Positions 14,252-45,581 of a stretch of 64,000 nucleotides of DNA are shown in pieces. Within the stretch, counting starts at the first letter, position 1. Every line of letters begins with the position of its first letter. The translations under genes and the position numbers were made by a program. Source of the DNA: Candidatus Aenigmatarchaeota archaeon (GTDB lineage: Archaea > Aenigmatarchaeota > Aenigmatarchaeia > CG10238-14 > SCSR01). The notes under the pieces were generated by a model. That model did no database searches, was not told the origin of the DNA, and was given only the letters and a program-made list of their open reading frames with translations. The stretch is from contig JAWADS010000001.1 in assembly GCA_038998625.1 (NCBI GenBank), forward strand, positions 9,222 to 73,221. The letters run 5' to 3'.

Positions 14252-16486
14252 ATGCCAGTAGAATATGAAATTGTTGATAAGGTTTTAAAGATAAATGCTC
14301 GAAATTGGGCGATTTCTTCAAGTATTGAGGATTCAGAAGCTGCGATGGCTGTTGTTATTGATAGGCTTATGGAAGCTAAAGATATTGAAAAGATAATAAT
14401 TTCGGATGTTAGAGATAATGAATATGATTACACACAAGTTAAAATTTTAAAAGAAATAGCAGATGCCTATGAAAAGCTTTTAAGTGTTGAAAATATTTTG
14501 AATAAAAATTTTGGTTGTGAACAGCATGCTGCCCAAAGAGTTTCTCAAATAAAATTTTTAATTTTTGAAGTCTTAAGGAAAGACCCTATTCTTGCTTATG
14601 CAAGGGTAAATATGCTAATAACTTTATTATTAAAAAGGATTTTATATCAAAATGAAAAGGAGCAGAGTTGTAGTTATAATTATTTAAATAATGTTTTATA
14701 TCCTATAAAAGAGGCTTTAGAGGCCACAACTTTAATTCAAAGGGTCAGGCCTTATTTAAGATTTTATAGATTTGGTGATAGAACTCTTTACAGAGAGATA
14801 TTTTTCCCCATCGTCAGACCTAGCTTTATGCAAACAAGCTTTAAGATTAAAATTCCCTTTGGCTCAGAGCTTGTTGATAAATATTACATTCTTGACGATA
14901 CATTGGTGCAAGTATTTAAAGTTCCTGGAAACGTTAGATATTTGTATCTAATTATTCCACCAGAATTTAGGCTTTCGGAGGAAGATTATAAAGTTCTTGA
15001 TTTAGCTAGAAAATATTTAGTGGAGCACAAACCTTTAGAAGAAATTACTGAGCCAGAAAAAACTAGAGAAATTTTTATAGCCTATGGAAAAGATTTAATA
15101 AAAAACATAATTAGAGATTTGGGGTTGAAGGTAAGTGAAAAGATTGATACTTTAGCTTCGATATTGGCTAGATATACTGCTGGTTTTGGTGTATTAGAGT
15201 TATTGTTATCAGATGAAAAAGTTCAAGATGTGGTTATTAATTCACCTATAGGTTCTAATCCTATTTATATTTATCATTCAGATTTTGAAGAATGCGAAAC
15301 CAATTTAATCCCTAGTTTGCAAGATGCTGAAAGTTGGGCAACACGTTTTAGATTATATTCTGGTAGACCTTTAGATGAAGCAAATCCTGTTTTAGACACA
15401 GAACTCAATTTACCTTGGGGCAGAGCTAGGGTAGCAGCAATAACAAAGACATTGTCCCCTTATGGTCTAGCTTTTGCTTTTAGAAGGCATAGAGAAAGGC
15501 CATGGACCTTTCCTTTATTTATGAAAGTAAAATATTTTGACCCATTGTTTGCTGGCCTAATGAGCTTTATCATCGACGGCGGAAGGTCTTTATTAATTGC
15601 TGGTGGTCGTAGCTCGGGTAAAACTTCTCTGCTAAACGCTTGTATGCTAGAGATAATGAGAAAGTTCAGAATAATTGTACAAGAAGATACTTTAGAGTTA
15701 AATGTACCTCTAATGATACAACTTGGTTATAATGTACAAAGATTGAAATCTCGCTCTGTAATTACAAAGGTTGAAATAGAGCTACCTCCAGATGAAGCTT
15801 TAAGGACTGCCCTAAGGCTTGGAGATTCTGCTTTAATTGTGGGTGAAGTAAGGTCTTCGGAAAGCGTTGCTTTGTTTGAGGCTATGAGGATCGGTGCCTT
15901 AGCCCATACAGTTGCAGGAACAATACATGGTGAATCAGCTTATGGAGTTTATGATAGGGTTGTTAATGATTTAGGAGTTAAGCCCACAAGTTTTAAGGCA
16001 ATAGATTTAATTGTTTTATCTAATATGTTGCGCTCACCAGATGGATTGCATAGATTCAGAAGGGTTGTTGAGGTTACTGAATTAAGAAAGAAATGGAAAG
16101 AAGATCCTTTAGAAGAGGGAGCTTTTGTTAATTTAATGGAATATTCAGCTAAAGAAGATAGGCTTAAACCAACTGATATTTTAATTTATGGTGAATCAGA
16201 AATTCTAAATGAAATAGCTAAAAGAGTTAGAGAATGGAAAGGAGCTTGGGATTTGGTCTGGGAAAATATTTTACTAAGAGCCAAAATTAAACAGGCTATG
16301 GTTAATTTTGCAGAAAAATTAAATAGACCAGAAATTTTAGAGGCAGATTGGGTTGTAGATAGCAATGAAGTATTTCATTTAATTTCCGATCAAGTTTTAC
16401 AGGAAGTTGGAAGCTTAGATTCAAAGTTGATTTATGAAAGATGGTTAGCTTATTTCAAAGAAAAATTAAAAGCTAGAATTAAATAA
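14252..16486 (+). CDS. type II/IV secretion-system ATPase (FlaI/TadA/PilB family) with roughly 430-aa N-terminal extension
   Basis: Walker A LIAGGRSSGKTS; Asp box IIVQEDTLEL; Walker B/His box LGDSALIVGEVRSSE...LAHTVAGTIHGES. Confidence 0.8.
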   Translation: MPVEYEIVDKVLKINARNWAISSSIEDSEAAMAVVIDRLMEAKDIEKIIISDVRDNEYDYTQVKILKEIADAYEKLLSVENILNKNFGCEQHAAQRVSQIKFLIFEVLRKDPILAYARVNMLITLLLKRILYQNEKEQSCSYNYLNNVLYPIKEALEATTLIQRVRPYLRFYRFGDRTLYREIFFPIVRPSFMQTSFKIKIPFGSELVDKYYILDDTLVQVFKVPGNVRYLYLIIPPEFRLSEEDYKVLDLARKYLVEHKPLEEITEPEKTREIFIAYGKDLIKNIIRDLGLKVSEKIDTLASILARYTAGFGVLELLLSDEKVQDVVINSPIGSNPIYIYHSDFEECETNLIPSLQDAESWATRFRLYSGRPLDEANPVLDTELNLPWGRARVAAITKTLSPYGLAFAFRRHRERPWTFPLFMKVKYFDPLFAGLMSFIIDGGRSLLIAGGRSSGKTSLLNACMLEIMRKFRIIVQEDTLELNVPLMIQLGYNVQRLKSRSVITKVEIELPPDEALRTALRLGDSALIVGEVRSSESVALFEAMRIGALAHTVAGTIHGESAYGVYDRVVNDLGVKPTSFKAIDLIVLSNMLRSPDGLHRFRRVVEVTELRKKWKEDPLEEGAFVNLMEYSAKEDRLKPTDILIYGESEILNEIAKRVREWKGAWDLVWENILLRAKIKQAMVNFAEKLNRPEILEADWVVDSNEVFHLISDQVLQEVGSLDSKLIYERWLAYFKEKLKARIK

Positions 16487-22009: not shown

Positions 22010-22372
22010 TCATTTTAAAGAAAAAAACCCTGCTATTTCGTTATAGTTACAATATATGGTTGATGCGCCTTCTATAAGTGTCATTATAAAAACCAGGAAG
22101 ACAATAATGCCATATAAATTGCTCAAAAATAATCCCCCTACTAATGATACCATTGGTCCAAATCTGGAAAATATTAAGATGTCTAGAATAAACAAAGCTA
22201 TTAAAACAATTGTTGGCTGCAAAGCTAAAAAAATTATTTTGATGCCTAACGGTAAAGTCCAACCAAAAAGCCTCAATAAAAAGAAAAATGGACCTTCGCT
22301 GATAAAACATGCTAAAGGCTGTAAATTGTTTAAAAAATAATTAAACTGTGCTAAGACAGACAAATCAACCAT
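22010..22372 (-). CDS. small polytopic membrane protein, hypothetical
   Basis: 120 aa, 3 predicted TM. Confidence 0.3.
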   Translation of the reverse strand: MVDLSVLAQFNYFLNNLQPLACFISEGPFFFLLRLFGWTLPLGIKIIFLALQPTIVLIALFILDILIFSRFGPMVSLVGGLFLSNLYGIIVFLVFIMTLIEGASTIYCNYNEIAGFFSLK

Positions 22373-23005: not shown

Positions 23006-24865
23006 ATGAAAGGGATTTCTACTTTACTAGTTTTGGCCGCAATTTTTTTATTTGTAAGCTTGCTTATAAATTTTATTTTCTTTCTTAATGTTTTGTCAAG
23101 AGAAGAAAATTTTGTTAGAACAGTAAGGGAAATGTATATCTATCAAGGGATAAATTACATCGAGCAATTTAAGAGGGCTTTTCCTTTTTTAATCGAATAC
23201 TCAATTTATAAGACTCTATCTCATAATGGAGGAGAACTATGTTCTTTCGGCCAAAGCACTTTTATAACTCCTTTAGCAGCCCAAGATTTCTTAAGCAGAA
23301 ATCGCTTACTTACTATTAATAATGTTCCCGCAGGTAGTATTCATACATCCCTCTATTGGGTTTTACTATATTTTGACAATTATCATAATTATTTAAATAA
23401 AATTGCCGAATTAACTTCGATCTTTTCTAGGATTCAACGCATCGTCTTCGATTATACCCCCGGGGTTAAAGTTGATGGTTATGCTGTGGATGATAAAATA
23501 TTAGTAACTTCTGAAAATACAATATCAAAACTTTTGCCAAACAATTTAGGAATTTTAAATGAAACCTTAAATGCTTCTGTCGAATTAATCATGAATTTTA
23601 TTCAACTCCTCGATAGAGCAGACGAAGAATGGTTAAATCAACCAAAATGTAGTGAGAGGGATTCTCTAGTAAAAAGTACAGCTGAGGCCTTTGAATGTAG
23701 CGAGGAAGGATCTTTTACCTACTCTTCATTAGAAGAATGTGAAAATGCTTGCGTATATATGGAACCATCAAGATGCGTTTATATTTTACAGCAAGAAATT
23801 GCTGGTGCTATAGGTGTACCATTAGGTTCAGATGTTAAAAACATTGATAAAGTTAAGGGAAGGTCAGTTGCTATAAGAGAATATACTAATCTAGGTGTCG
23901 AAACAAATTATCTTTTAGGATATTGCGTTGATAGTGGTTGCGATTGTTCTAAAAAAGAGTGTGAAGAGAAGGATGATGAAGGAAATTGTATTGAAGAAAA
24001 GTGTGTAGAATGGACTAAGAAAGTTAAGTGTGAATACAAAAATTGGAGGGCAAGAGCAGGTTTATCTATCACAGAAAAGGATGAAAGGAATTTTTACCCT
24101 GCTTCGAATGATTGGGTGCAATCACAATTTAGTTTTAGTATGGTTTTAGGGCATTTGGATTTAGGAACCAGAACTACATTAGACACTTGTGCTACTAGAA
24201 AAATAATTGAAGCCCAGTTGGAGGAAGAGTGTAAAAAGTCTGGCGGAACTTGGAATCCAGATAAAAAGCAATGTGAAAATTGTCCAGATAGGAAAGTTTT
24301 CTACAAAGGTAAATGTGTAGAAAAATCTATTGTATGTAAAGAGACAGGTGGGACTTACAATCAAGATACAGACACATGTTCATGTCCTGATGATAAATTA
24401 CTTGTTCTAGAAGCTTATTGTATAAATAAAAAAGAAATTTGTGAAAGCGAAGATGAGAATTTGGGTATAGTCAAAGGTAATTACAACCCACAGACAAATG
24501 ATTGCGAATGCCCTCAAGATACTATTGATATGGGTCCTTATTGTTTATCAAAAAAAGCAGCTTGTACTCAAAGCGGTGGAACTTATAATCCAAATAATCC
24601 GAAAAAACCTTGCGAATGCGATGCAAATAAGGGTTTAATTTCTTGGGGGGATGTTTGTGTAAGTAAGAAGGAGGCTTGTGGTTTTAGTGCTCCAGATAAG
24701 GGAATAAAAGCCGGTACATATGATGAAGTTAATAGAGTTTGTGATTGCCCTAATGGAACTAAATACAATGAAGAATTTGGAATTTGTGTAGAAGCAAAAC
24801 TAGTATGTAGTTGTGCAAAAAATGTTGTGACTAACGAAGTAATCTGTAGTTGTTCAGAAGCTTAA
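23006..24865 (+). CDS. secreted cysteine-rich repeat protein (5 repeats of about 42 aa with 4 Cys each)
   Basis: N-terminal TM/signal; C-terminal repeats of pattern C-x12-13-C-x-CP-x10-12-C-x6 (for example CKKSGGTWNPDKKQCENCPD..., CKETGGTYNQDTDTCSCPDD..., CTQSGGTYNPNNPKKPCECDAN...). Confidence 0.6.
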   Translation: MKGISTLLVLAAIFLFVSLLINFIFFLNVLSREENFVRTVREMYIYQGINYIEQFKRAFPFLIEYSIYKTLSHNGGELCSFGQSTFITPLAAQDFLSRNRLLTINNVPAGSIHTSLYWVLLYFDNYHNYLNKIAELTSIFSRIQRIVFDYTPGVKVDGYAVDDKILVTSENTISKLLPNNLGILNETLNASVELIMNFIQLLDRADEEWLNQPKCSERDSLVKSTAEAFECSEEGSFTYSSLEECENACVYMEPSRCVYILQQEIAGAIGVPLGSDVKNIDKVKGRSVAIREYTNLGVETNYLLGYCVDSGCDCSKKECEEKDDEGNCIEEKCVEWTKKVKCEYKNWRARAGLSITEKDERNFYPASNDWVQSQFSFSMVLGHLDLGTRTTLDTCATRKIIEAQLEEECKKSGGTWNPDKKQCENCPDRKVFYKGKCVEKSIVCKETGGTYNQDTDTCSCPDDKLLVLEAYCINKKEICESEDENLGIVKGNYNPQTNDCECPQDTIDMGPYCLSKKAACTQSGGTYNPNNPKKPCECDANKGLISWGDVCVSKKEACGFSAPDKGIKAGTYDEVNRVCDCPNGTKYNEEFGICVEAKLVCSCAKNVVTNEVICSCSEA

Positions 24866-24898: not shown

Positions 24899-25276
24899 AT
24901 GAATTGGGAGGAATTATATAAAAAATATTCAAAGCCAAAAAAGAAAAAAATATTTCCTATTTTATTAGTTATAGTCTTTTCGACTCTATTTTTTCTCTTC
25001 ATATTATATTATTTTTCTTTACCAGAATTTATAGAGCCACAGGCTGAAATTGTAAGTGATGTAATAACTCTACCTTCTATAAAGGGCGAGCATTGCACAA
25101 TATATATAACTGGTCCAAATAATATAATAAAATTATTTTCGGAATATGATTGTAGCGAATATCAAATTTTTAGGTTTGAGATTTTAGATCTTTTTTCGGA
25201 TATTAAAGGTAGGTATAAGTTAGTTGTTGTTTCTGATTCAGGAAATAATTTGACGAAAAACTTTTTGGTGGTATAA
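24899..25276 (+). CDS. single-pass membrane protein, hypothetical
   Basis: 125 aa, N-terminal TM; stop overlaps start of giant gene (TAATG). Confidence 0.35.
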   Translation: MNWEELYKKYSKPKKKKIFPILLVIVFSTLFFLFILYYFSLPEFIEPQAEIVSDVITLPSIKGEHCTIYITGPNNIIKLFSEYDCSEYQIFRFEILDLFSDIKGRYKLVVVSDSGNNLTKNFLVV

Positions 25277-28200
25277 TGAAAAAAAGTATTTCAATTTTTT
25301 TAATTATAACTTATTTGCTCTCCATTATTAAAGTACCAATAGCTGTCACGCAGAGTACAGATAATTTTAGTGATGAAGATGTAAAGAAAATTTTAAGCAA
25401 AGGAGCAATATTTTGTGTAAAAGATGCTGTAGAGGTATCTAAAGATGTTTATAAAGTTGTATGTTTAATCTCTCCTAAAAATTTAACCAAAGTAAAATTT
25501 GAATTTGGGCCCGCATTTAGTTTTGGAAGAATGGAGTTTCTAGGTTATGAAGCCACAGATAAGATTGAGTTTGTGAGCAAATTTAAGAACTTTCTGGAGT
25601 TTGAAGTATTTCCCACTTCTAGAGTAGGATTTACTATAAATATAAAAGCAAATTTCAGGCCCAATTTCAAAGTAACTTCCACTCTACCTGCTTATTACTT
25701 TAATGATTTGAAAGAACTTTTTGATGCTATAGATTCTATTCATTCTATAGAAGCATTGGAAGTTTTAAAATCTAGTTGTGAGGTGGCGTTTGAGAAAGAA
25801 TGTGTTTTAGAACATTTTATTACTAATTCCAGTGCTCCGGCGAAATATATAAATTTAACTAGTGATGAGTTAAGCAAATTGGTAGCTTTAGGAGAATTTT
25901 CCAAAAAGATAGATGGTGCTGATGTAAAATTTGTGCTTAGTTTTGAAAATAATGAAGTAAAAGTTTATGATAAGGAAAATTATGTCGGAAACTTTTATTT
26001 GCATTCAGCTTTTGTTCCCGTTAAAGCGCCAAGCCTCCCTGAAACGAATTTAACATCTTTAGAAACGATTAAAGAAGTTACCTTATTTTTCTTGAATTAT
26101 GAATTGAAAATAAATGGAACTGACGTTTATATAACAGAGTACGAAGATTTAGATTTGTTGGCAGATGAAATATTTTCTGGCAAACTATTTCCAATTACAG
26201 GTTCTTTTATTGCCACAGAAATTTTTAATAAGATAAAAGAAGAGTTGCTAATTAAACAAAGTAAACAAAGAGATTTAGCAGAAAAAATACATACTTTTGA
26301 AAAATTCGCTACCGACTATAATGTAAATATATTTAAACGCATAATGATTGCTATCTTAAACGAGATAAATAATAATATAGAATTAGGTGAAATAGAGGAA
26401 GCTAGTCAGCGTATAACAAAATTGAAAAATGCAGTTGGGGAATTTTCAAAAAATGCAGTTGGGGAATTTAAAGATTATTTCCAAGATTTAGAGAAAGAAC
26501 TAACTAAAATAGAAGAAACCATTAAAACAGATTTTAAAAGTGCACTAGATTATGTAAGAAATTTAAAAGAAAAAATAACTTCTGAAACAATTAATGATTT
26601 CCTTCAAGTTGCAAAGTCGAAAGGAGTAGATATATCTAAAAAATTTACAGAGAAAGATGGTAGGAGAGCACCAAAAGTTGTAAATGTTGTAAGAACAAGC
26701 GTAACAGAATTACCACCATCTATAAAAGATAAAATCACGTCACCTATATTCGTTCCTAAAGGACAACCTGATTTAAAAGATATGAAAAAATTCTTTAAAG
26801 AGCTCGCTTTTAGGGATTATATTGACCAAGGCATTTATTTGTTCTGGGGTGATTACTCAAAGGTCCCTAGAGAATATTTACAAGTATATGTTTCTGTAGC
26901 TAAGGAAGATTATCAAAAGGCTTTGAAGTTTATACAATTTGAACTGAAAAGAAATAATATACCTCATTTAATGGTTAAGCCAGAGCTTTATGATGAAGTT
27001 AAGAATGGAAAATATGTGATAATTCTTTTACGTAATAATGACGATTTGAGAGTGGTAAGGACCATAGAAGATATCTTATATAATCTAAATATTAGACCTG
27101 GGCCCAAGCCTTTAATAAAGGGAATATCTTTAGATAAGTATATAATAAGTAAATATACTTTTGGCGCGTGGGAAAACAATTTTGGTGGAGAAAAAAAGAT
27201 TAAACCAATTCTTGCATATAATTCTGATACTGGGAAGTTGGAAACTATATCTCCAGAGACACCTTTGCTTCCAAAAGTTGTTACACAATCTGATTTATTG
27301 AATAAAAATTTCAAAGAGGGAGATGTGATTGCTTATTTTGCTCCTCATGGTGATGCTAGAATATATTTAATGGGGGAAATAAAATCCTTTGACGCAAGTA
27401 AAAAAAGAGTTCTCGTTTCAAATATTTTTGGTTCAGAATTTGAGATCCCAATAAATTGGGTATCAAATACACCAAACATTCATATCTTTTACGATAAACA
27501 TAAGCAAATCGAAATACGACAATTATCAGAAAAACTATGGAGGAATTCTCTATCAAAAAATCTCGCCTCTAAATTAAGCATATCGGATGTTGAGCTTTTG
27601 TTAAAGAATGGATTTTACCTTAAAGGTGATTTAGTTTATTACCTTTCTGAAGATAAAAGAATTTATAGCTTACCTCTCGATGATTTTCTAAAATCTCCCT
27701 CAATTGAAGATATTTTTTGGGATACATATAAGAATCATTTAATAGTTATTCCTAATTCCCTAAGCGAAAAATATCCTGCGAGACTTAAAGGTCTTGCTAT
27801 AACTAAATCTGTTTATAATGATATAACTTCTTGGATTAATAACATCCAGCCCGGTCAACAGAAAGGTTTAGTTGCTTTCCTTACAATGAATGAAAAAGGA
27901 GTGATAGACAAAGTTTGGTTAAAGGGCATAACTGATCCTGTTTATGAAGGAGTGACTCTTGGTTCTATCCAAGATTTCCATAAGTATATATTAGCAAAAT
28001 ATTTGAACCCATTAGAGTTTGGTCTACATGGAAAACTATTGGCATATTTCGTACCAGAAGGCTTCTTACCAGATTTAACCTTAGGGCAACTTTTAGCGTC
28101 TTTTGAGTATGATAAAAAGGATGTTTTTCATTTATTGCTTATTTCAAGAGAATTAGGTGAAGTAAAATTTAATTTTTACAGAATTGATTTTTCCAAGTTA

Positions 28201-31200
28201 TCGAAGGATGATATTCAATGGCTAAAATACATAGCGAATGAATATCGAAGGAGAACTGGAACAGAATTAGCTTTATCTACAATAAGTGAGCAATTGGAGG
28301 CGCACCCAGATTTAAAAGCATATTTTGAAAAACATTCTAATTTCCACAAGATTGGTACACAAAATATTGAAATGGTTCATAAAATTGATGAAACAAAAGC
28401 TTTCAAAATTGCACTACTTAATGGTGAACAAGCCATAGGTGGTTTGGAGAGATCTCTAAAAAATCTTAAAAAAATGATATTTTTTGGCAATGAGTTAGAT
28501 CTTCAAACTGGTTTTACATATAGATATTCTTTTAGATACGCTTCTAATATATATACAGAAATACGCAGAAGAGTGGATCTATGGGACAGTATTTTAGATA
28601 ATCTGTTAAAAAGCGGTGAGATATCCCAAGAAATTTACAATTCTTATAAAAACATAATAAATAAAGTTTACGAAATAGGATTAACCATTGAGCCAGGGAA
28701 GCCTATAAAGGATACTTTGAAAAAAATTGATGAAGCTTTAAAGTCAATAAAGAATGAAAAGAAGACATTATTTAAATTATTATCCTATCAATCTAAAAAA
28801 TTATCCATAGAGCCCAACACTGGGTTTAGTGAGGTCGCTAAAAATATAGAACCTACTAAATTACCTGAAAATATTGAAGAGTCCATAGAGAATTCTGCAA
28901 TCGCTAAAGTAGCAAAAGAAGAAGCTGAAAAGGGCATAAAAGAAATTCCAAGTCAAGAAGAAATTCTACAAAAAATTGAAAGGGAACAAGAAAGATTAAT
29001 ATCAGAAACACCAAGAACGAGTTTTGAGCCTACTGCTCAAAAAATTGGTAAAGTAGATGAATTAACTTCCAAGATTGATAATTATATCCTATCTAGTAAA
29101 ATAGCAGATTCGTTAACAACAGAAAATATTAGAAAATTGTTGGATGGAAAAGTAGTTTTTGTTGATGATAATTATTTGCTTGTATTATCTCCAAAAGGTC
29201 AATTAACTTTAGTTCATTTTCCTGATAAAACGTTTTTATATTCTTCCGATGGAACTAAGGCTGTTATAAAAATGAGATCCACACCCTACCTAACACCAGA
29301 CGATTTAGATGAATTAATAAAAAAGAACATACCTATGGTTTATCCGAAATATAAGCTTCCCGATGAAGTTCTTGTAATAGGAATTGTGGATGGAAGGCCT
29401 GTTGAAAAACTTTATGATTTGAGAGAATTCAAAAAGTTTGTTGAAAATGAGGGAACGCCTTCAGCAAAAATATCAAGAGAATTTAGAGAAAAATTTAACT
29501 CTTATTTAGATTCTATTCGTGGAACAGAAGAAGAAGTTGTAAAAGCGTTAGATAAATTTTTCAATATGAAAGGGTTGCCGGAAAAATCTGATTTAACTAT
29601 TGCGGCAGGCCCGGCAGTAAAAGTAAAACCCAAATTACTCAACATCGATGAAGATTATCTTCAATTCAGGTTAGGAATTTCTATTATTAATGCCGAGACG
29701 GCACAAAACGTACTTTCACCAATATATGCTATAAGGGACGATTTAGAAACTAATTTTAAGTTAATGGGAATAAAGACCCCTGATGACATAGCAGATGGTA
29801 TGACAATAAAAATAAAAGGAAGAGATTATGTTTTACGTAAATTACCTAATAACCAAATTTCTATCGAGCTTGCAGTTTTTCGTGAGGGTGATCCATCCCT
29901 TTTAGAATTCCAAAAAGTGGGCACATTTTATCTTGTTGATGGTGAAGTTAAAGATGCGTATTCATGGAATAGAGCGGTGGCTTCTACGTTCAAAGATGTA
30001 AAGGCTTCTCAAGACCTCAGGGATGGCAGATATATTCTGAATACAAATAATTACAAAATTGAAAAAATGGATTATGGCTCAGTAGTGTTTGAAAATAATA
30101 GGCCAGCTATTTTTAGTATTGTAGGGGCAAATAGGGAAACCATGTATGTACCTATTTCTATTGATAGATCGCAATTTTTGCAAAAAACTTTCTCAGAAAT
30201 CGGAACTGCTGGGATAGGAAAAGAATATGCATTCGGTTCAGACAATGGAGATGTCTATAGATTTACCAAAAGACATTGGGAACCCGATTTAAAATGGGAA
30301 ATGGAAGTTAATGGAAAACCGGCTGGATTTTTGACGGATGAAGGATTAAAAACAAAAATAAGAGAATTAGTGGGTTCTGGTTATAATCCATTAATTCCCG
30401 CTTATAGGTTTAGTCCAATCGATGTTGAAAAAGAAATAAGAGGACTTTCAGAGCCTTATTATTCTAAAACTTTCTCAAATGGTCAAGAAGCTTTCAGACT
30501 TAGAAATGTTGATGGTCGCATTATATTAGAGACAGGGGGGATGCAACCAAGAACAATAACTGTTGAAGAGGCTCGGTCACTTCTAGCAACATCTAAAAGA
30601 GTAGAGATATTAAGCACAGATGGTGCTAATTTAATATCCCAAACATCTTTTTGGAAACAAATATCAAGGCCAGTAGGAATATTAACAAAAGATTTTTATC
30701 CTTTAGTTGGTCCGGCTGATTTTATTGCTTTTGGCGCTATAGCAGCATTTTCTCTTTATAGTATAACTGAAAATAGGGAAGAAATGAATAGGAGAATTGT
30801 TTATAATACGGTTGAAAATTTTGCGGTCGAGCCTCTATTAGTTACAACAATTGCAAGGGGTTTAGGTCTGAGAGCAGCTTTCAGTGGCGCAAGGGCTGCT
30901 GTTGCGGGCGTAGGTGGCGCAATTACTCTAGGAATTTTAACGGCTGTAGTTGCTGCAGAAATGGTTGCAGAAGATACAATAGAAGAATATCTAAGAGGTA
31001 ATAGGTTAAATGATATGGGTATACCTATACCTAATGATTTGGGGTCAGCTTTAGGTAGAGTTTTTGGAGGATATTGGGACTTTTTAATAAATTCAAATAG
31101 TGAGCAAACTCTAGAGAGTAGCAGTATGTTTAATACAGTAGCTACATCCATTTATAAAGACTTATCTAATCAAGCATTAAAAAACTTTCAAAATTATATA

Positions 31201-32682
31201 GATTCAAAGATTGGTAATAAAAATAATGAAATCCTTAAGGGAATACAAAAAATCATAGAACTTCACGGCACAGGTCCTAAAGGAAACTATGTAGACATAA
31301 TCGATGGTACGGAATATGTGTGGTTTATGGAAGAAGGTAAGTTTGAAGTTAAGTATACAAATGAAGCCGGGAATAAAGTTACAATAACCTATAGAATAAC
31401 TGATGCGGGTATTGTACCTACTGAATATAAGGAAGAAGGTAAAGTGGGCTTTGATGCTCTCGGTTGCTTAACACGTCCCTTAGGTTTAGGTGGGAATTGT
31501 TGTTTAAATCTAGCTGGGTGTGATGTAGGAATAATAGAAGAAAGGAAGATTAGTTTCTCTGATTTACAACATGAGGCTTTCAATAGGGCCGATGATTTAA
31601 TTGTTGATAGAGTAGAAGGAGATTTAAATAGATTGACTGCCTTTACAAAACCCGATGAAATTCTTAATGAAGCTCAAAGAATAGCCGATAAACTAAATTC
31701 AGATCCAAATTTTGTTCAATATTATGGTAGGCCCATCACAGCTTCAGAAGTTATTGAACTTGCAAAACCAAAAATTAAAAAAGATGCTGAAACAGAATGC
31801 CTACAAGCATTTGCTGGAGATATTTATGGTTTCTCTTCACAAGAAGCTTATGATAAATGCGTTGAAGATACATATAAGAAAAAAGTTCAGGCATTCGAAG
31901 AAAGTCATAATCAGATAGGATTTAAAGATTGTTCACAAGCTGGTGGAACATGTATGCCACCTATACATGCTGTGGAACGTGGTTGCGAGAGGTTTTACTT
32001 TTATTGCGATAGTTCACGAATGTGTTGCAAATCCCAAGTAAGTACACCGCAAGAGCCTAAAGGTCAAGAGACAATCAATACTTACGAGGCATGTGAAGGC
32101 TTACGTAACCAGGGACTAGATTCAGGTTGCTATCTTGGCAAATGCGGTCAAGGTTACATTTCAGCAGGCTATTGCGATAAGGCAAATGACGTTTATTGTT
32201 GTGTTAAGGCAGAAGGGACTGGCCAAATCAACACTTACGAGGCATGTGAAGGCTTACGTAATCAAGGACTAGATTCAGGTTGCCATCTTGAAAAATGTAT
32301 TCAAGGTTACACTTCAGTAGGTTATTGTGATCAGGCAAATAGCGTTCATTGTTGTGTTAAAACAGAAGATTGTACTTCAAAGGAATTGAAAAAAGAATGT
32401 ATTAGTGATAAAAAACTAAGGATTACTGGTTATGTTTGTCCTTCTGGCTATGGTAGTGATATAAATTGTCTGAAATGTGTGGAGGGTTCTGCGGAGATAG
32501 AATGTAAAATGGGATGCAGCACCAAAACTAACAACTGTGTTGAAGAAAATTTTGTACCCATAGGAAATTATATTTGCCCAAAAGACGCTTGCAGTAAAAG
32601 CGGTGAATTTTGGACTTGTGATTTGGGTAGATGTGAGGCTCTACAAGGCAGCAGTGCACCTACTGCACCTACAAGTGAATAA
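25276..32682 (+). CDS. giant secreted/surface protein (2468 aa) with C-proximal hydrophobic segments and C-terminal Cys-rich modules
   Basis: Uninterrupted 7.4-kb ORF; signal peptide MKKSISIFLIITYLLSIIKVPIAV; hydrophobic stretches at residues about 1805-1900; C-terminal 400 aa with more than 40 Cys including a duplicated 51-aa 6-Cys module. Confidence 0.8.
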   Translation: MKKSISIFLIITYLLSIIKVPIAVTQSTDNFSDEDVKKILSKGAIFCVKDAVEVSKDVYKVVCLISPKNLTKVKFEFGPAFSFGRMEFLGYEATDKIEFVSKFKNFLEFEVFPTSRVGFTINIKANFRPNFKVTSTLPAYYFNDLKELFDAIDSIHSIEALEVLKSSCEVAFEKECVLEHFITNSSAPAKYINLTSDELSKLVALGEFSKKIDGADVKFVLSFENNEVKVYDKENYVGNFYLHSAFVPVKAPSLPETNLTSLETIKEVTLFFLNYELKINGTDVYITEYEDLDLLADEIFSGKLFPITGSFIATEIFNKIKEELLIKQSKQRDLAEKIHTFEKFATDYNVNIFKRIMIAILNEINNNIELGEIEEASQRITKLKNAVGEFSKNAVGEFKDYFQDLEKELTKIEETIKTDFKSALDYVRNLKEKITSETINDFLQVAKSKGVDISKKFTEKDGRRAPKVVNVVRTSVTELPPSIKDKITSPIFVPKGQPDLKDMKKFFKELAFRDYIDQGIYLFWGDYSKVPREYLQVYVSVAKEDYQKALKFIQFELKRNNIPHLMVKPELYDEVKNGKYVIILLRNNDDLRVVRTIEDILYNLNIRPGPKPLIKGISLDKYIISKYTFGAWENNFGGEKKIKPILAYNSDTGKLETISPETPLLPKVVTQSDLLNKNFKEGDVIAYFAPHGDARIYLMGEIKSFDASKKRVLVSNIFGSEFEIPINWVSNTPNIHIFYDKHKQIEIRQLSEKLWRNSLSKNLASKLSISDVELLLKNGFYLKGDLVYYLSEDKRIYSLPLDDFLKSPSIEDIFWDTYKNHLIVIPNSLSEKYPARLKGLAITKSVYNDITSWINNIQPGQQKGLVAFLTMNEKGVIDKVWLKGITDPVYEGVTLGSIQDFHKYILAKYLNPLEFGLHGKLLAYFVPEGFLPDLTLGQLLASFEYDKKDVFHLLLISRELGEVKFNFYRIDFSKLSKDDIQWLKYIANEYRRRTGTELALSTISEQLEAHPDLKAYFEKHSNFHKIGTQNIEMVHKIDETKAFKIALLNGEQAIGGLERSLKNLKKMIFFGNELDLQTGFTYRYSFRYASNIYTEIRRRVDLWDSILDNLLKSGEISQEIYNSYKNIINKVYEIGLTIEPGKPIKDTLKKIDEALKSIKNEKKTLFKLLSYQSKKLSIEPNTGFSEVAKNIEPTKLPENIEESIENSAIAKVAKEEAEKGIKEIPSQEEILQKIEREQERLISETPRTSFEPTAQKIGKVDELTSKIDNYILSSKIADSLTTENIRKLLDGKVVFVDDNYLLVLSPKGQLTLVHFPDKTFLYSSDGTKAVIKMRSTPYLTPDDLDELIKKNIPMVYPKYKLPDEVLVIGIVDGRPVEKLYDLREFKKFVENEGTPSAKISREFREKFNSYLDSIRGTEEEVVKALDKFFNMKGLPEKSDLTIAAGPAVKVKPKLLNIDEDYLQFRLGISIINAETAQNVLSPIYAIRDDLETNFKLMGIKTPDDIADGMTIKIKGRDYVLRKLPNNQISIELAVFREGDPSLLEFQKVGTFYLVDGEVKDAYSWNRAVASTFKDVKASQDLRDGRYILNTNNYKIEKMDYGSVVFENNRPAIFSIVGANRETMYVPISIDRSQFLQKTFSEIGTAGIGKEYAFGSDNGDVYRFTKRHWEPDLKWEMEVNGKPAGFLTDEGLKTKIRELVGSGYNPLIPAYRFSPIDVEKEIRGLSEPYYSKTFSNGQEAFRLRNVDGRIILETGGMQPRTITVEEARSLLATSKRVEILSTDGANLISQTSFWKQISRPVGILTKDFYPLVGPADFIAFGAIAAFSLYSITENREEMNRRIVYNTVENFAVEPLLVTTIARGLGLRAAFSGARAAVAGVGGAITLGILTAVVAAEMVAEDTIEEYLRGNRLNDMGIPIPNDLGSALGRVFGGYWDFLINSNSEQTLESSSMFNTVATSIYKDLSNQALKNFQNYIDSKIGNKNNEILKGIQKIIELHGTGPKGNYVDIIDGTEYVWFMEEGKFEVKYTNEAGNKVTITYRITDAGIVPTEYKEEGKVGFDALGCLTRPLGLGGNCCLNLAGCDVGIIEERKISFSDLQHEAFNRADDLIVDRVEGDLNRLTAFTKPDEILNEAQRIADKLNSDPNFVQYYGRPITASEVIELAKPKIKKDAETECLQAFAGDIYGFSSQEAYDKCVEDTYKKKVQAFEESHNQIGFKDCSQAGGTCMPPIHAVERGCERFYFYCDSSRMCCKSQVSTPQEPKGQETINTYEACEGLRNQGLDSGCYLGKCGQGYISAGYCDKANDVYCCVKAEGTGQINTYEACEGLRNQGLDSGCHLEKCIQGYTSVGYCDQANSVHCCVKTEDCTSKELKKECISDKKLRITGYVCPSGYGSDINCLKCVEGSAEIECKMGCSTKTNNCVEENFVPIGNYICPKDACSKSGEFWTCDLGRCEALQGSSAPTAPTSE
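26425..26472 (+). repeat. 24-nt tandem duplication (encodes KNAVGEFS twice) inside giant gene
   Basis: aaaaatgcagttggggaattt occurs twice with 24-nt period. Confidence 0.7.
32074..32379 (+). repeat. 153-nt tandem duplication (about 90 percent identity) encoding a 51-aa 6-Cys module
   Basis: atcaaTacttacgaggcatgtgaaggcttacgtaaCcagggactagattcaggttgcTatcttg... repeated starting 32074 and 32227. Confidence 0.85.
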
Positions 32683-32714: not shown

Positions 32715-33569
32715 ATGGAAAAAGGTCAAGCAGGTTTAATAATTATTGCCGTAGTTGTTGTATTGGCCATAATAATTTTTATGTTTTCTTCATCTGGCCC
32801 TACCACAACCTTTCCTACTGGTGGTATAGGTGGTAAAGGAAGTGCTTTGAATATAGAGCAATTAAGGTTTAAACCTGAAGTCTTTTCAGGAGAAAGTATT
32901 GTTATCGAAGTAAAAATAAAGAATAGGGGTATATATGATGCTAAAAATGTTGTATTAAATCTTTTAGGCCTAACCGATGAATGGAAAATAGATGGCGAAC
33001 CATTAACATCAAATCATCCTAAAAGAACAGTGAGTTTTCCAACGCTTCTAGGAGATCCAAAGCTAAATGGTGAAGAACAAATAGCTATTTGGCAATTAAC
33101 AGTTCCAAATAAAGTAACTACCCTTACATATCCATTCACCATAAAACTTAATTATGATTATAAAAGTAGATACGAGGCATTGGTTAGAACAGTTTCCCCA
33201 ACTTTTAGAGAAAAGGGAAGGCTTCTAGATCAAAAGATTACTCCTGGACCCATAGTGGTTAGTCTCAAATCAGATGAGTGGCGCGTCATCGGAACTTTTA
33301 CAAGTGTTGAATTAACTATTACTAATTCTGGAGGCGGAGAGGTAGTGGACAGAGTTATTACTTTAAAAAACCTTAAAAATATAGAATGTCCGCAAACTAC
33401 ATTAACTTTTAGCACAAAAGATTCACAAATAGAAAAAGAAATAACAACAACATGTAAAATTCTTACAGGTTCGGTCCAAGAATTTAATGATATTGAAGTA
33501 AGTTTTGATTTAGAATATAGATATTCAATAAAACAAGATAAAAGCATAAAAGTTAAACCTTTAGCTTAA
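32715..33569 (+). CDS. secreted pilin-like protein with class III signal peptide
   Basis: MEKGQAGLIIIAVVVVLAIIIF matches archaeal prepilin motif (KG then Q/A); 260-aa beta-rich extracellular part with 2 Cys near C-terminus. Confidence 0.5.
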   Translation: MEKGQAGLIIIAVVVVLAIIIFMFSSSGPTTTFPTGGIGGKGSALNIEQLRFKPEVFSGESIVIEVKIKNRGIYDAKNVVLNLLGLTDEWKIDGEPLTSNHPKRTVSFPTLLGDPKLNGEEQIAIWQLTVPNKVTTLTYPFTIKLNYDYKSRYEALVRTVSPTFREKGRLLDQKITPGPIVVSLKSDEWRVIGTFTSVELTITNSGGGEVVDRVITLKNLKNIECPQTTLTFSTKDSQIEKEITTTCKILTGSVQEFNDIEVSFDLEYRYSIKQDKSIKVKPLA

Positions 33570-33676: not shown

Positions 33677-33958
33677 ATGGCAGAAATGCAACAAGACAAT
33701 GTTATTCTAATCGGTAGAAAAAGCCCCATGAGTTATGTACTAGCTGTAATAACTCAATTCACTAATGGTGCTTCTGAAGTTTTAATAAAAGCTAGAGGGC
33801 GAGCCATATCAAGGGCTGTTGATGTAGCTGAGATTGTAAGAAGAAGATTCTTACAAGATGTAAAAGTTAGTGACATAAAAATTGATACAGAAGAAAGGGA
33901 AGTTCCTGATAGGGGGAAGCTAAACGTATCAACAATTACAATAAAGTTAAGTAAGTGA
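33677..33958 (+). CDS. albA: DNA/RNA-binding protein Alba
   Basis: [28 protein letters not shown]...[22 protein letters not shown] matches Alba family across full length. Confidence 0.85.
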
Positions 33959-33994
33959 TATTTTCTTCTTCCCCCTTTCTTTATTTTATTAGAG

Positions 33995-35539
33995 TTATCT
34001 ATCTAAAATGAAAGTTTTTTTGTGGAGAGGCTCTTCTCTAACCACGTGAATTAATATTTCCCTTCTTTCCCCCACACCAAAGCAGTGCTCTTCCTCTAAA
34101 ATTTTTCTTACTCTTTCCAATTTTCTACTTTTCTCTGAAAATACAGTAAAAATTATATCACCCTTTTTCACAAAATCACCAACTTTTTTTCTTAATAAAA
34201 TTCCAGATCCTTTATCTTTTGGTGCTCCTGCAGCTCTAGCAACTTCAACTAAAGCATTGTTATCTAACCAAAGGACAAAACCATTTCTATCTGTTCTCAT
34301 ATCAAGCCCATAGCTACCTATTTCAATATCCTCAGGCCTTATGTGACTATCGCCACCTTGCCAAGAAATAATTTCCCTCAGCTTTTTTTCAGCCTCACCT
34401 GATTTTAAAATTTCTAGGGCAGTTCTTCTATCTCCTTTGTTAGTCATTTTTAACAAAATTCCAGCCAAATCAACAGCTTTATCAATTACATCAGGAACAT
34501 TTTTTCTTCTCATTAAAATTTCCAATGCTTCTCTCGCTTCTAAAGCTGGCCCTATGGCATAGCCCAAAGGTTCTTCTCCATATGTTACAGCACATTCTGT
34601 TTTTATTCCAAGTCTTTTCCCCAATTCAATAAAATCTTTAGCTAAAAGATTAGCATCTCCAATAGTTTTAACTTTCGATCCCCTTCCAGTAGGTATATCT
34701 ATAACTAAAAAATTTGATCCCACAGCCTTTTTTTTACTCATGATGGAAGGAAGCAAAAGTGGATCTATAGATAAAGGATGTTCAATTTGAATGAAAATAT
34801 CATCAGCAGGCGCCAAATGTAATGCGCCACCCCATACTATACAACCATTGCATTTATTAACAACATTTCTCATTTCTTCTATCTCCAATTCTACATTCAT
34901 TAAAACACTAGCTCTATCTGCAGTTCCAGCCGCACTTGTTATGGCTCGAGAAGAAGTTTTTGGTATGGTTAAGCCAGCAGCAGCTATTATGGGAACAAGT
35001 AATAAGGTTGTCTTATCTCCTGGTAATCCTCCCACAGAATGTTTATCAACTATAGAATTTTTTGTTTCAAGTTCAAGTTTTTTTCCAGTTTCTATCATTG
35101 CCAAGGTTAAGTTAATGGTTTCGTCTAAACTCAAACCAAAATCATTCAAAGCAGTAACGAAGGATGCAATCTCTAACTCGCTTAAATTACCCTCCACAAC
35201 ATCTCTAACAATTTGAAATATTTCCTCTCGAGATAATGTTCTTCCTTTAAGTTTATTTTTTATGTATTGCAAAGATTTAGGGAATTTTGCTGGTTCAACT
35301 TCTACTTCTTCATTTTCTCTTACTTCTAGAACACTTTGAACTTCTTCATAAATTCCAATAAAATTTTTTGGAACAACTCTTTTAGCAATATTTACTATTG
35401 CCGTAATGGTTTTTTTCTTAGTTTGTATTTTTATTCTACTCCCACTTCTTATTCCTAATTCTTCTGCATCTTCAAAGTTAATGATTGCGATAGGTTTGCC
35501 CCCAGACTCTAAGCCGAGAATTTTTATTTTTAGCTTCAT
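33995..35539 (-). CDS. AMP phosphorylase (thymidine phosphorylase family, DeoA-like with N-terminal extension)
   Basis: DKHSVGGLPGDKTTLLLVPIIAAAGLTIPKTSSRAITSAAGTADR matches pyrimidine-nucleoside phosphorylase core; about 514 aa with extra N-terminal domain as in archaeal AMPpase. Confidence 0.7.
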   Translation of the reverse strand: MKLKIKILGLESGGKPIAIINFEDAEELGIRSGSRIKIQTKKKTITAIVNIAKRVVPKNFIGIYEEVQSVLEVRENEEVEVEPAKFPKSLQYIKNKLKGRTLSREEIFQIVRDVVEGNLSELEIASFVTALNDFGLSLDETINLTLAMIETGKKLELETKNSIVDKHSVGGLPGDKTTLLLVPIIAAAGLTIPKTSSRAITSAAGTADRASVLMNVELEIEEMRNVVNKCNGCIVWGGALHLAPADDIFIQIEHPLSIDPLLLPSIMSKKKAVGSNFLVIDIPTGRGSKVKTIGDANLLAKDFIELGKRLGIKTECAVTYGEEPLGYAIGPALEAREALEILMRRKNVPDVIDKAVDLAGILLKMTNKGDRRTALEILKSGEAEKKLREIISWQGGDSHIRPEDIEIGSYGLDMRTDRNGFVLWLDNNALVEVARAAGAPKDKGSGILLRKKVGDFVKKGDIIFTVFSEKSRKLERVRKILEEEHCFGVGERREILIHVVREEPLHKKTFILDR

Positions 35540-35542
35540 CCT

Positions 35543-35818
35543 TCATCTCACCACACAAGATTTCTTTATATCATCATAACTACACTGCATATTCGGTTTT
35601 GGAGATAAAACTTGAGGACAAACAACAAAAACTTTATCGCAATCCATTTTTTGCGAATAATTTCTTAAATCAACACACTCCCAATAAGCTCCTGCCGTTT
35701 CTGGGCAACAGTTTGTTATAACCCATTCACATCTTGGCATTTCTTTAAGACCTTTCAAATACATATTTATTAAAATTCCTATAACAGCTAAAATAAAAAT
35801 TATTGTTATAAACTTCAT
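35543..35818 (-). CDS. small secreted Cys-rich protein (10 Cys in 91 aa)
   Basis: Signal peptide MKFITIIFILAVIGILINMYL; CEWVITNCCPETAGAYWECVD...; start/stop overlap the flanking genes. Confidence 0.4.
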   Translation of the reverse strand: MKFITIIFILAVIGILINMYLKGLKEMPRCEWVITNCCPETAGAYWECVDLRNYSQKMDCDKVFVVCPQVLSPKPNMQCSYDDIKKSCVVR

Positions 35819-36666
35819 CCCTCTCCCTTAATCATTTTAATAATTTGTTCTGGTGTTTTAATTCCTTCGTCTGTTATTATTCTTGTTACAAACTTCCAAG
35901 GCACAATATCAAAAGCAGGATTTCTAATTTTAACTCCAGTTAATTTTCCAGGATGCAAAAGTCTATGATAAACTTCTTCTGGTGGCCTTTCTTCTATTAC
36001 TAGTTTTTCCCTTCTGTCAAGCTTTAATTTATTTCCCACCACATAAAATTTTTTTCCAAAATTTTTAGCAGCTAGAGCTAAATTTAGCGTCCCAATCTTA
36101 TTCACAAAACCTTCTTTCCTCATAGCATCTGTGCCCACAATAACCATGTCAACTTCTTTCATGAAAAAACCTACTGCATTATCTGTTATCAAAGTTATAG
36201 GAATTTTTTCCCTTGCCATTTCTTTTACTGTTTTAATACCTTGTTGTAAAGGTTCTGTTTCTGTTGCTATGACTGAAATTTTTTTCCCTATTTTGTTGGC
36301 GTATTTTATTACCGCTAAAGCTTCCCCCGAATGGCAATGGGTCATGATTTTTGCTTCCCTTGGAATTACTTTTTGACCAATTTTTTCAATTTTTTTTGTT
36401 GAATTTTCCAGTTGTTTTATTAGTTTGTCTATTGTTGACATTTTTTTATTTTTTTTAATAATTTCCAGGCAGTTGTGCAAAACTACAGCCGTTGGGCGGG
36501 CCCTTTCTAAAATCATAGCTGCAACTTCAAACTTTAATCCAAATCCATTTTTCTTACAGAAATCTTTCAAAAATTTTAATGAATATAAAGCAATTTCCCT
36601 AGCCCCTTGAATTTTTAATTTTTTCAAATTTTTCTCTACTGTTTCTAAATTTTTCATATATTCCAA
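35815..36666 (-). CDS. ribose-1,5-bisphosphate isomerase (e2b2/eIF-2B-like family)
   Basis: IMTHCHSGEAL and GTDAMRKEGFVNKIGT motifs of the eIF-2B alpha/beta/delta-like isomerase family; adjacent to AMP phosphorylase. Confidence 0.55.
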   Translation of the reverse strand: MEYMKNLETVEKNLKKLKIQGAREIALYSLKFLKDFCKKNGFGLKFEVAAMILERARPTAVVLHNCLEIIKKNKKMSTIDKLIKQLENSTKKIEKIGQKVIPREAKIMTHCHSGEALAVIKYANKIGKKISVIATETEPLQQGIKTVKEMAREKIPITLITDNAVGFFMKEVDMVIVGTDAMRKEGFVNKIGTLNLALAAKNFGKKFYVVGNKLKLDRREKLVIEERPPEEVYHRLLHPGKLTGVKIRNPAFDIVPWKFVTRIITDEGIKTPEQIIKMIKGEG

Positions 36667-38014: not shown

Positions 38015-38134
38015 TGGGGTCGGAGGGATTCGAACCCTCGTTAACCGGTTGCTTCTTACTTCTCATAGCTCCATATACTGGAGCCGGTTTTCTAATCATG
38101 GAAGATGTCTTAGACCTAGCTAGACCACGACCCC
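38015..38134 (-). tRNA. tRNA-Trp(CCA) with two predicted introns (about 17 nt after position 26; about 28 nt in anticodon loop)
   Basis: Minus-strand read: GGGGTCG-TG-GTCT-AGCTAGGTCTA-AGAC-A-[tcttccatgattagaaa]-ACCGG-CTCCA[gtatatggagctatgagaagtaagaagc]AA-CCGGT-TAAC-GAGGG-TTCGAAT-CCCTC-CGACCCC-A; perfect acceptor and T arms. Confidence 0.6.
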
Positions 38135-38235
38135 AGCCACCAGTGGGATTCGAACCCACAACCCCCTGATAACTTTCTGTCATTTTTCCAGTTATCAGGT
38201 ACAAGTCAGGTGCTCTACCGTTGAGCTATGGTGGC
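38135..38235 (-). tRNA. tRNA-Thr(UGU) with about 29-nt canonical-position (37/38) intron
   Basis: GCCACCA-TA-GCTC-AACGGTA-GAGC-A-CCTGA-CTTGTA[cctgataactggaaaaatgacagaaagtt]A-TCAGG-GGGTT-GTGGG-TTCGAAT-CCCAC-TGGTGGC-T; directly abuts tRNA-Trp. Confidence 0.7.
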
Positions 38236-45498: not shown

Positions 45499-45581
45499 TG
45501 GGCCTGTCCGGAATCGAACCGGAGTTTCGACCGTGTGAGGGTTTAACGCTTCGTCGCGTCCTACCACTAGACTACAGGCCC
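45499..45581 (-). tRNA. tRNA-Val(CAC) with predicted 12-nt intron inside the anticodon stem
   Basis: GGGCCTG-TA-GTCT-AGTGGTA-GGAC-G-CGAC[gaagcgttaaac]C-CTCACAC-GGTCG-AAAC-TCCGG-TTCGATT-CCGGA-CAGGCCC-A; removing 12 nt gives a perfect 5-bp anticodon stem. Confidence 0.65.

Follow-up and report, generated by a model that had tools for sequence, protein, structure and literature searches.

The 64,000-nucleotide (nt) window analyzed here (GenBank assembly GCA_038998625.1, contig JAWADS010000001.1, positions 9,222–73,221, forward strand), from a hot-spring Candidatus Aenigmatarchaeota (DPANN) archaeon, encodes a giant protein of 2468 amino acids (aa) whose cysteine-rich C-terminal tail contains two tandem six-cysteine modules, M2 and M3. 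Profile comparisons and structure prediction indicate that this domain very probably folds like a beta-defensin, as a three-stranded antiparallel sheet that packs against a short N-terminal helix and is locked by three disulfides. We describe M2, M3, and their homologs in related proteins as beta-defensin-fold modules of open origin, which may reflect shared ancestry, convergence, or transfer.

Thirty-six of the 40 cysteines of the giant protein are located at aa 2064–2453, within the last 405 residues, and the first 2063 residues contain the other four. Cysteine accordingly makes up 8.7% of the tail versus 0.2% of the first 2000 aa. The giant open reading frame (ORF) and the features of its tail are as follows.

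25276..32682 (+): giant ORF, 2468 aa, from the ORF list and translation.
31465..31521 (+): four-cysteine motif C-x10-CC-x5-C, aa 2064–2082, which begins the cysteine-rich tail and is conserved in the distant full-length homolog P0002.
Giant protein tail (+): cysteine pair, aa 2175 and aa 2195, from cysteine positions.
31930..32028 (+): M1, aa 2219–2251, six cysteines ending in CC, with the spacing C-x6-C-x10-C-x6-C-x5-CC.
32074..32214 (+): M2, beta-defensin-like module, aa 2267–2313, with the spacing C-x11-C-x4-C-x9-C-x7-CC and a predicted N-terminal helix and three-stranded sheet.
32227..32367 (+): M3, tandem duplicate of M2, aa 2318–2364, with the same spacing and 79–81% amino-acid identity.
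32073..32379 (+): 153-nt tandem repeat of two units, encoding M2, M3, and the linker (Tandem Repeats Finder and alignment).
32371..32634 (+): C-terminal 12-cysteine region, aa 2366–2453, a separate cysteine-rich domain conserved in P0002.

The original prediction, made from the bare sequence, described CC-ended modules at 32074 and 32227 within a 153-nt tandem repeat and quoted the six-cysteine peptide CEGLRNQGLDSGCYLGKCGQGYISAGYCDKANDVYCC. All of these were recovered in the ORF translation and by Tandem Repeats Finder (153-nt period, 32073–32368, 1.9 copies, 86% matches, no indels). The peptide occupies aa 2273–2309 (nt 32092–32202) and has its second copy at aa 2324–2360; both repeat units start in frame. 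Some of the details had to be corrected. The first loop, given as 10 residues, comprises 11, and the identity of the copies, put at about 90%, is 122/141 nt (86.5%) over the 47-codon core and 82% over the full 153 nt. Instead of at least three modules with the same spacing there are only two, the third CC-ended segment being the differently spaced M1. A codon-level pattern, C-x4-C-x3-Y-x3-G-Y-C-D-x6-C-C, has two matches in the window and none in 100 dinucleotide-preserving shuffles. M1 was not detected in a six-frame scan of the window with a hidden Markov model (HMM) of the canonical modules, and neither of the two M1-type segments (the other being in P0002) matched Defensin_beta in the Pfam scan. 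By hhalign, M1 aligns with the canonical modules at P 0.0026 and with beta-defensins at P 0.058. Only two modules in the window are therefore clear-cut, and M1 may be related to them in diverged form.

With the last 259 residues as query, exhaustive phmmer searching of 1.84 billion representative proteins yielded only two real relatives, P0002 and P0003; another match (P0004), a cysteine-free repeat protein, was discarded as spurious. P0002 (2328 aa) is a full-length homolog with 35% identity overall and 51% in the last 680 residues. It contains three canonical modules and an M1-like segment, and is encoded in a syntenic four-gene cassette on contig L001. Approximately 245 residues of coiled-coil-like sequence, present after aa 262 in the giant protein, are missing from P0002. 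P0003 (233 aa) is a polytopic membrane protein with two modules at its C-terminus, and its gene adjoins those of a T2SSE ATPase, Alba, AMP phosphorylase, and RuBisCO in a related genome. One of the samples from which P0003 comes is named GBSCSSed85C, which suggests sediment at 85 °C. Scanning JGI metagenomes with the codon pattern brought up a further homolog of P0003, of 278 aa and with three modules (L007), also encoded beside a T2SSE ATPase; one of the three metagenome matches (L006) was a chance match in G+C-rich low-complexity DNA, and the pattern had no match in the genome contigs or viral contigs searched. Word-indexed protein searches returned only the query itself for the full giant protein and no match for the module alignment or the 680-aa C-terminal alignment. 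A related-locus search with the C-terminal alignment likewise found nothing in genome contigs or metagenome contigs.

The ten canonical modules of these four proteins can be aligned with a single gap, which corresponds to a five-residue insertion in the first loop of M2 and M3. All canonical modules outside the window have a six-residue first loop and the spacing C-x6-C-x4-C-x9-C-x7-CC. The six cysteines, one tyrosine, and the run Gly-Tyr-Cys-Asp (G-Y-C-D) are invariant in the ten modules, and a glycine precedes the second cysteine in most of them. Module length varies between 42 and 47 residues across the family (47 in the window), and the units recur every 51 aa in the window and every 43 aa in P0003 and L007.

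The resemblance to beta-defensins, noticed only by eye in the original prediction, is supported by sequence-profile, shuffle, and predicted-fold tests. In the comparison with defensin models that the prediction had proposed, three homologous modules from the relatives (40–57% identical to M2) passed the gathering threshold of the Pfam family Defensin_beta (PF00711, 21 bits) with 25.4, 23.2, and 22.6 bits, and a fourth scored 16.9 bits. Defensin_beta and DEFB136 were the only families matched in the Pfam scan of single modules. None of ten shuffles of the best-scoring module, made with the cysteines fixed, matched Defensin_beta, and the similarity therefore extends beyond the cysteine framework. 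The spacing of the relatives (6/4/9/7/0) falls inside the framework range quoted in the original prediction, C-x(4-8)-C-x(3-5)-C-x(9-13)-C-x(4-7)-CC, and those of M2/M3 (11/4/9/7/0) and M1 (6/10/6/5/0) fall outside it.

The same relationship was observed in the opposite direction. A search of 177,635 distinct PDB sequences with the module profile produced five matches at E ≤ 10, all of them beta-defensins (hBD-2 constructs and gallinacin-7) that aligned with all six cysteines in register. The ten-module archaeal HMM assigned 17.3 bits to hBD-2 and 15.3 bits to gallinacin-7, whereas their cysteine-fixed shuffles scored 0.4±3.8 and −1.5±3.7 bits, respectively; the real score was reached by 2/2000 and 0/2000 shuffles, proportions that are somewhat optimistic because both sequences had been picked as the best PDB hits. 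With hhalign, the modules aligned to eight beta-defensins, whose sequences were entered by hand, at P 2e-4 over 33 columns, again with the six cysteines in register, as compared with P 0.35 for four alpha-defensins. The Gly-x-Cys preceding the fourth cysteine is G-Y-C in 10/10 modules and G-x-C in all eight of these hand-entered beta-defensins. Judged by sequence, the similarity includes this Gly-x-Cys and is specific for the beta type. Membership in the alpha-defensins was rejected on the hhalign value and on their framework C-x-C-x(3-4)-C-x9-C-x(6-10)-CC, to which the modules do not conform. Big-defensin membership was likewise rejected, and cis-defensin (cysteine-stabilized alpha/beta) membership by the lack of any such structure among the fold matches.

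AlphaFold2, applied to M2 with a seven-row module alignment, predicted a helix (residues 4–12) followed by three strands, i.e., a three-stranded antiparallel sheet with an N-terminal helix, with a mean predicted local distance difference test score (pLDDT) of 91.3. In a Foldseek comparison with the PDB this model matched hBD-2 with a probability of 0.99 and AvBD3 with 0.97, and the top 27 matches were all defensins; against predicted viral structures, used as a negative control, Foldseek returned only noise. The model superposes on hBD-2 at 1.2 Å over 40/41 residues, and the identity of the modules to animal defensins is 20–25%. Given the in-register alignment of the six cysteines and the close superposition, the disulfides presumably connect C1–C5, C2–C4, and C3–C6. 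No match to another cysteine-knot family, which the original prediction had named as a contrary outcome, was found, and the predicted fold agrees with the beta-defensin one. In a model of the 259-residue tail, M2 and M3 each show a helix and three strands. The pLDDT of this model is 59, and therefore no fold claim is made for M1 or the 12-cysteine region. The latter (e.g., CVEG-AEIECKMGC and YICPK-ACS-SG) is all-beta in the tail model, with a local pLDDT of about 70, and has no family match.

The amino-acid identity of 79–81% between M2 and M3 compares with 69% between two of the copies in P0002 and with 45–57% between the modules of the two giant proteins. Both window copies share the five-residue insertion, and the duplication therefore postdates the split of the two lineages. 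When the two- and three-copy forms of the small membrane protein are compared, their first modules correspond to each other, as do their last ones (81% identity each), so that the extra unit is internal. Between relatives, both the giant and the small membrane protein differ in copy number (two versus three), which thus changes over evolutionary time. This much agrees with the recent, ongoing expansion proposed originally, which was to be checked by copy number in related genomes. The timing does not agree: three near-identical genomes that were compared have the same two copies without any difference in number, and the window's duplication is not recent, with a synonymous divergence (dS) of 0.31. 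The corresponding nonsynonymous divergence (dN) is 0.11 (dN/dS 0.35). No nonsynonymous change was observed in codons 1–19, comprising the helix and first loop (dN 0), and dN/dS is 0.58 in codons 20–47, from the second cysteine on. The 19 nucleotide differences between the copies include 16 transitions and 3 transversions and are not adenine-specific. They are ordinary point mutations, and mutagenesis by a diversity-generating retroelement was rejected on these grounds.

The product of the giant ORF is identical to NCBI MEM5801806.1, 'hypothetical protein QXQ18_00215 [Candidatus Aenigmatarchaeota archaeon].' Proteins at least 90% identical to it are present in three further genomes, and in the two complete ones (P0005 and P0007) the tail is exactly identical to that in the window. 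Within this 90%-identity cluster the partial MEM4326118.1 (1133 aa) is labeled Candidatus Pacearchaeota at NCBI, the other three being labeled Aenigmatarchaeota; this is probably a binning or classification inconsistency. No Pfam family reached its threshold for the whole giant protein, the 414-aa tail, or the neighboring proteins, the tail had no NCBIfam match, and the 259-aa tail matched no PDB sequence at E ≤ 10. The giant protein contains only six N-x-S/T sequons, with none in the tail, and a short internal tandem duplication (KNAVGEFS/KNAVGEFK) near aa 393–408.

The window is archaeal: it contains a signal recognition particle RNA gene (Archaea_SRP), both subunits (A and B) of topoisomerase VI, AMP phosphorylase, Alba, and an S-layer protein, as well as intron-bearing tRNA matches and an IF-2B family protein of the ribose-1,5-bisphosphate isomerase type. 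The G+C content is 32% for the window and 41% for M2/M3, a mild excess due to the Gly/Cys/Ala-rich composition of the modules. Six tRNA matches were reported by Rfam (38015–38235, 45499–45581, 55123–55266, 56009–56094, 56814–56899, minus strand). Several of them are well above 76 nt (101, 120, and 144 nt), which suggests intron-containing archaeal tRNAs. ARAGORN, run in bacterial mode, reported just two of the six (anticodons aaa and cgt).

The four-gene cassette around the giant ORF is conserved in L001. Features of the cassette, the locus, and the giant protein outside its tail are listed below.

14252..16486 (+): FlaI/TadA-family (T2SSE) assembly ATPase (PF00437, E 2.2e-15; NCBIfam FlaI, E 2.2e-35, and TadA, E 2.6e-33, both below the equivalog cut-offs).
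22010..22372 (−): 120-aa membrane protein without modules, similar to P0003 over a short stretch (BLASTP E 2e-4) and in the same position beside a 201/223-aa membrane protein.
23006..24865 (+): 619-aa protein, prepilin-like at its N-terminus (MKGISTLLVLAAIFLF...) and cysteine-rich and repeated in its C-terminal half, directly upstream within the conserved four-gene cassette (translation).
24899..25276 (+): 125-aa single-pass membrane protein, whose stop codon shares one base with the start codon of the giant ORF.
25276..25356 (+): signal-peptide-like hydrophobic segment, aa 1–27 (MKKSISIFLIITYLLSIIKVPIAVTQS; Kyte-Doolittle 2.24), conserved in P0002.
30700..30966 (+): two hydrophobic segments by hydropathy, at aa 1809–1828 (weak, 1.59) and aa 1872–1897 (strong, 2.07; AVAGVGGAITLGILTAVVAA).
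32715..33569 (+): 284-aa protein, prepilin-like at its N-terminus (MEKGQAGLIIIAVVVVLAIIIF...), immediately after the giant ORF and conserved in L001.

At least six ORFs of the locus have archaeal-prepilin-like N-termini, as identified by eye, and two of them flank the giant gene directly; only one prepilin-like ORF has an N_methyl match, which is sub-threshold (14.4 bits). A 649-aa polytopic protein of the locus has no family match in Pfam or NCBIfam. By its FlaI/TadA-family ATPase, polytopic protein, and prepilin-like N-termini, the surrounding locus appears type IV pilus-like. In Aenigmarchaeota, type IV pili have been reported only from genomes of thermal habitats and were proposed to serve attachment and host contact (PMC8407114); among the genes of Nanoarchaeota, those for pilus components and surface proteins have diversified most and have been connected with contact to the host (PMC6142677).

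The N-terminal segment of the giant protein (aa 1–27) is a putative Sec signal peptide, and the two internal hydrophobic segments form a probable membrane hairpin. The loop between them contains five lysine and arginine residues, and five aspartate and glutamate residues follow the second segment. A hairpin would place the 1800-residue body and the cysteine-rich tail both outside the cell, a location that fits the disulfide-rich nature of the tail, but the topology, deduced from hydropathy and flanking charge, is ambiguous. A glycine-zipper-like segment (ARAAVAGVGGAITLGILTAVVAAEMV, 30889–30966, plus strand) is conserved and lies approximately 570 residues from the C-terminal end of the protein.

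The 2468- and 2328-aa proteins carry the modules internally and the 233- and 278-aa membrane proteins at the C-terminus, and the linkers between them are only a few residues long. With respect to charge, the ten canonical modules range from −5 to 0 between the first and last cysteines, in contrast to +5 for hBD-2 and +4 for gallinacin-7. Being anionic or neutral, they therefore probably do not act as cationic membrane-disrupting antimicrobials. We consider it moderately probable that they are compact, heat-stable, protease-resistant, disulfide-locked surface modules of beta-defensin fold, used for binding or spacing and not as free cationic antimicrobials. M2 and M3 would then be tandem copies of a disulfide-locked domain in the probably extracellular C-terminal part of a membrane-anchored giant protein. 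Judging from context, they may bind a partner or keep a binding surface at a distance from the cell, most likely for contact with a second cell, for example a host, the archaeon being a probable symbiont. The array would grow and shrink by unequal recombination of whole units, giving the two or three copies seen in the relatives, and the half of the module from the second cysteine on changes faster than the helix and first loop. Both the extracellular location and the binding or spacer role are what we infer from this arrangement.

The same surroundings could be taken to mean that the modules are functional defensins, membrane-active or lipid-binding and either displayed or released, with which the DPANN cell breaches or remodels the envelope of a host or competitor. 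Such a role would agree with the beta-defensin-like sequence and predicted fold, with the location of the carrier proteins in a surface-appendage locus of a lineage thought to depend on host contact (PMC8407114), and with the conserved glycine-rich hydrophobic segment of the giant protein. It is nevertheless unlikely, since the net charge of the modules contrasts with that of the strongly cationic antimicrobial beta-defensins, neither dibasic nor other obvious processing sites flank them, the linkers are short, and both copies are under purifying selection.

Several observations weigh against the assignment of a beta-defensin fold to surface-exposed modules. M2 and M3 themselves had no Defensin_beta match at E ≤ 10, and their first loop of 11 residues is longer than is usual in beta-defensins. 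The sequence statistics are modest, with marginal E-values of 0.09–0.3 for the PDB matches and an hhalign probability of only 46% versus beta-defensins, to which the optimism of the shuffle proportions may be added. AlphaFold2 was trained on beta-defensin structures and may have produced the fold from the cysteine pattern alone, the more so as its alignment was shallow (only 7 rows). As for the topology, the first hydrophobic segment is weak and below threshold in P0002, the charge evidence for a hairpin is modest, and a protein that crosses the membrane only once would have its tail in the cytoplasm. Finally, the family is tiny, three protein clusters among the 1.84 billion representatives, so that functional inference rests on context alone.

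Most of these points would be accommodated if the resemblance were a coincidence of cysteine spacing amplified by the memory of AlphaFold. The modules would then have another fold or pairing, or would coordinate a metal if the tail is cytoplasmic. The presumed disulfide pairing also leaves room for this explanation. We regard it as distinctly improbable. Whichever side is shuffled with its cysteines fixed, the similarity is lost, and beta-defensins are matched in preference to alpha-defensins. The structurally important Gly-x-Cys before the fourth cysteine is invariant, and most modules also have a glycine before the second; the modules lack the CxxC and His-containing motifs typical of metal sites, and the superposition covers nearly all of hBD-2. 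An origin from an animal beta-defensin by contamination, chimeric assembly, or recent horizontal transfer, the simplest source of a true homolog given that beta-defensins are otherwise described only from animals (PMC7203481, PMC11561630), is very improbable indeed, and contamination is excluded, since the modules lie in frame in a 2468-aa ORF on contigs of 94 and 622 kb with archaeal signal recognition particle RNA, topoisomerase VI, and S-layer protein genes, recur in independent assemblies from ENA and JGI, have low identity to animal defensins and a G+C content only mildly above that of the window, and come in one case from a sample whose name points to hot sediment. An ancient transfer, by contrast, may have taken place.

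Modules of this kind are not restricted to the giant protein. A pair of small membrane proteins is encoded on the minus strand of the window (22365–22970, 201 aa, and 22010–22372, 120 aa) and is matched by L005 (42–1407) and L007 (966–2469). Its second member carries two or three defensin-like modules at the C-terminus in the related genomes and none in the window; on weak evidence, from the short match and the shared position, the 120-aa protein is likely to correspond to the membrane portion of P0003. It thus seems that the modules are decorations that can move between membrane proteins of the locus. The 201-aa protein has a sub-threshold match to T4SS_pilin (PF18895, 17.3 bits). The 619-aa protein, without a Pfam or NCBIfam match, is a second, different cysteine-repeat protein of the same cassette. 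Its C-terminal half consists of approximately five repeats of a four-cysteine unit of ~35–40 residues (C-K-x-S-GGT-W/Y-N-...-C-x-CP-...-C), and its L001 ortholog (733 aa, L001 23–2224) occupies the same position and contains an extra cysteine-rich insert. The 125-aa protein has a 130-aa counterpart at the same place in L001. A 133-aa prepilin-like protein (19510–19911, plus strand) contains eight cysteines including a CC doublet (…VYCCGSVGGDISVC…) and does not match the module profile. Adjoining the pilus-like locus at 33677–36666 are genes for Alba, AMP phosphorylase with a CDC48_N-like N-terminal domain, and an IF-2B-family isomerase. In the related contig L002 (2588–6623) the RuBisCO large subunit gene lies between these genes, completing the archaeal AMP salvage pathway; RuBisCO was not seen at the matching place in the window.

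Among the known systems, vertebrate beta-defensins (PF00711; hBD-2, PDB 1fd3; AvBD3, 7lzl; gallinacin-7, 5lcs) share with the archaeal modules the six-cysteine CC framework, the Gly-x-Cys, and the predicted helix and sheet. hBD-2 and gallinacin-7 have the spacing C-x6-C-x4-C-x9-C-x6-CC, whereas the last loop of the archaeal modules has seven residues instead of six and the first loop in the window has 11. Vertebrate beta-defensins are cationic, small secreted peptides of animals, unlike the archaeal modules, which are repeats in membrane proteins of 233 to 2468 aa. The avian double beta-defensin AvBD11 (gallinacin-11, PDB 6qeu/6qes; PMC9138766) is an 82-residue secreted animal peptide and in this respect also differs from tandem units present in two or three copies in a giant membrane protein. 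Invertebrate big defensins (Cg-BigDef1, PDB 6qbk; PMC7203481) resemble the archaeal proteins in having a beta-defensin-like domain C-terminal to a hydrophobic domain, with the same presumed cysteine pairing, which in beta-defensins is Cys1-5, Cys2-4, Cys3-6 (PMC7203481). Bacterial cis-defensins (actifensin, xanthusin, and actinomycesin; PMC11561630, PMC12284004, PMC8819291) are likewise prokaryote-encoded, defensin-type disulfide-rich domains, but they belong to the cysteine-stabilized alpha/beta superfamily, have parallel disulfides, and act as free antibacterial ribosomal peptides. The alpha-amylase inhibitor helianthamide (PDB 4x0n) and a sea-anemone neurotoxin (PDB 2sh1) exemplify non-antimicrobial roles of the beta-defensin fold; they differ from the modules in being free animal peptides and gave far weaker matches.

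At the level of the whole protein, the product of the giant ORF resembles giant surface proteins of DPANN archaea, such as the SPEARE proteins of Nanohaloarchaeum, in being very large, lineage-specific, and probably surface-exposed in a host-dependent ultrasmall archaeon. No sequence relationship to them was detected; the giant protein described here has no Pfam domain and a single distant full-length homolog (35% identity).

According to the literature, the origin and evolution of trans-defensins (alpha-, beta-, and big defensins) were confined to animals (PMC7203481), and only the unrelated cis-defensins were reported in bacteria (PMC11561630). Our literature search found no report linking the defensin domain to archaea, DPANN, or prokaryotes. 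The contig that encodes the modules is archaeal, and they also differ from animal defensins in charge and in being domains of larger proteins; we therefore do not file them as members of the animal beta-defensin family. What is new is the domain of life and the protein architecture in which this predicted beta-defensin-like fold occurs, together with a charge that speaks against the classical function. A bolder proposal, which at present seems doubtful, is that the modules are true homologs of animal beta-defensins, the first trans-defensins outside animals, displayed on a pilus-associated giant protein to recognize or attack a host. If this were true, the fold would predate animals or would have crossed domains of life by gene transfer. 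The alternative meaning is an unusually close convergence, reaching detectable profile similarity, and either outcome bears on how small disulfide-rich folds arise. The modules offer a concrete, testable handle on a 2468-aa protein without any other recognizable domain, encoded in a pilus-like locus of a DPANN archaeon; the cell–cell contact machinery of DPANN archaea is poorly understood.

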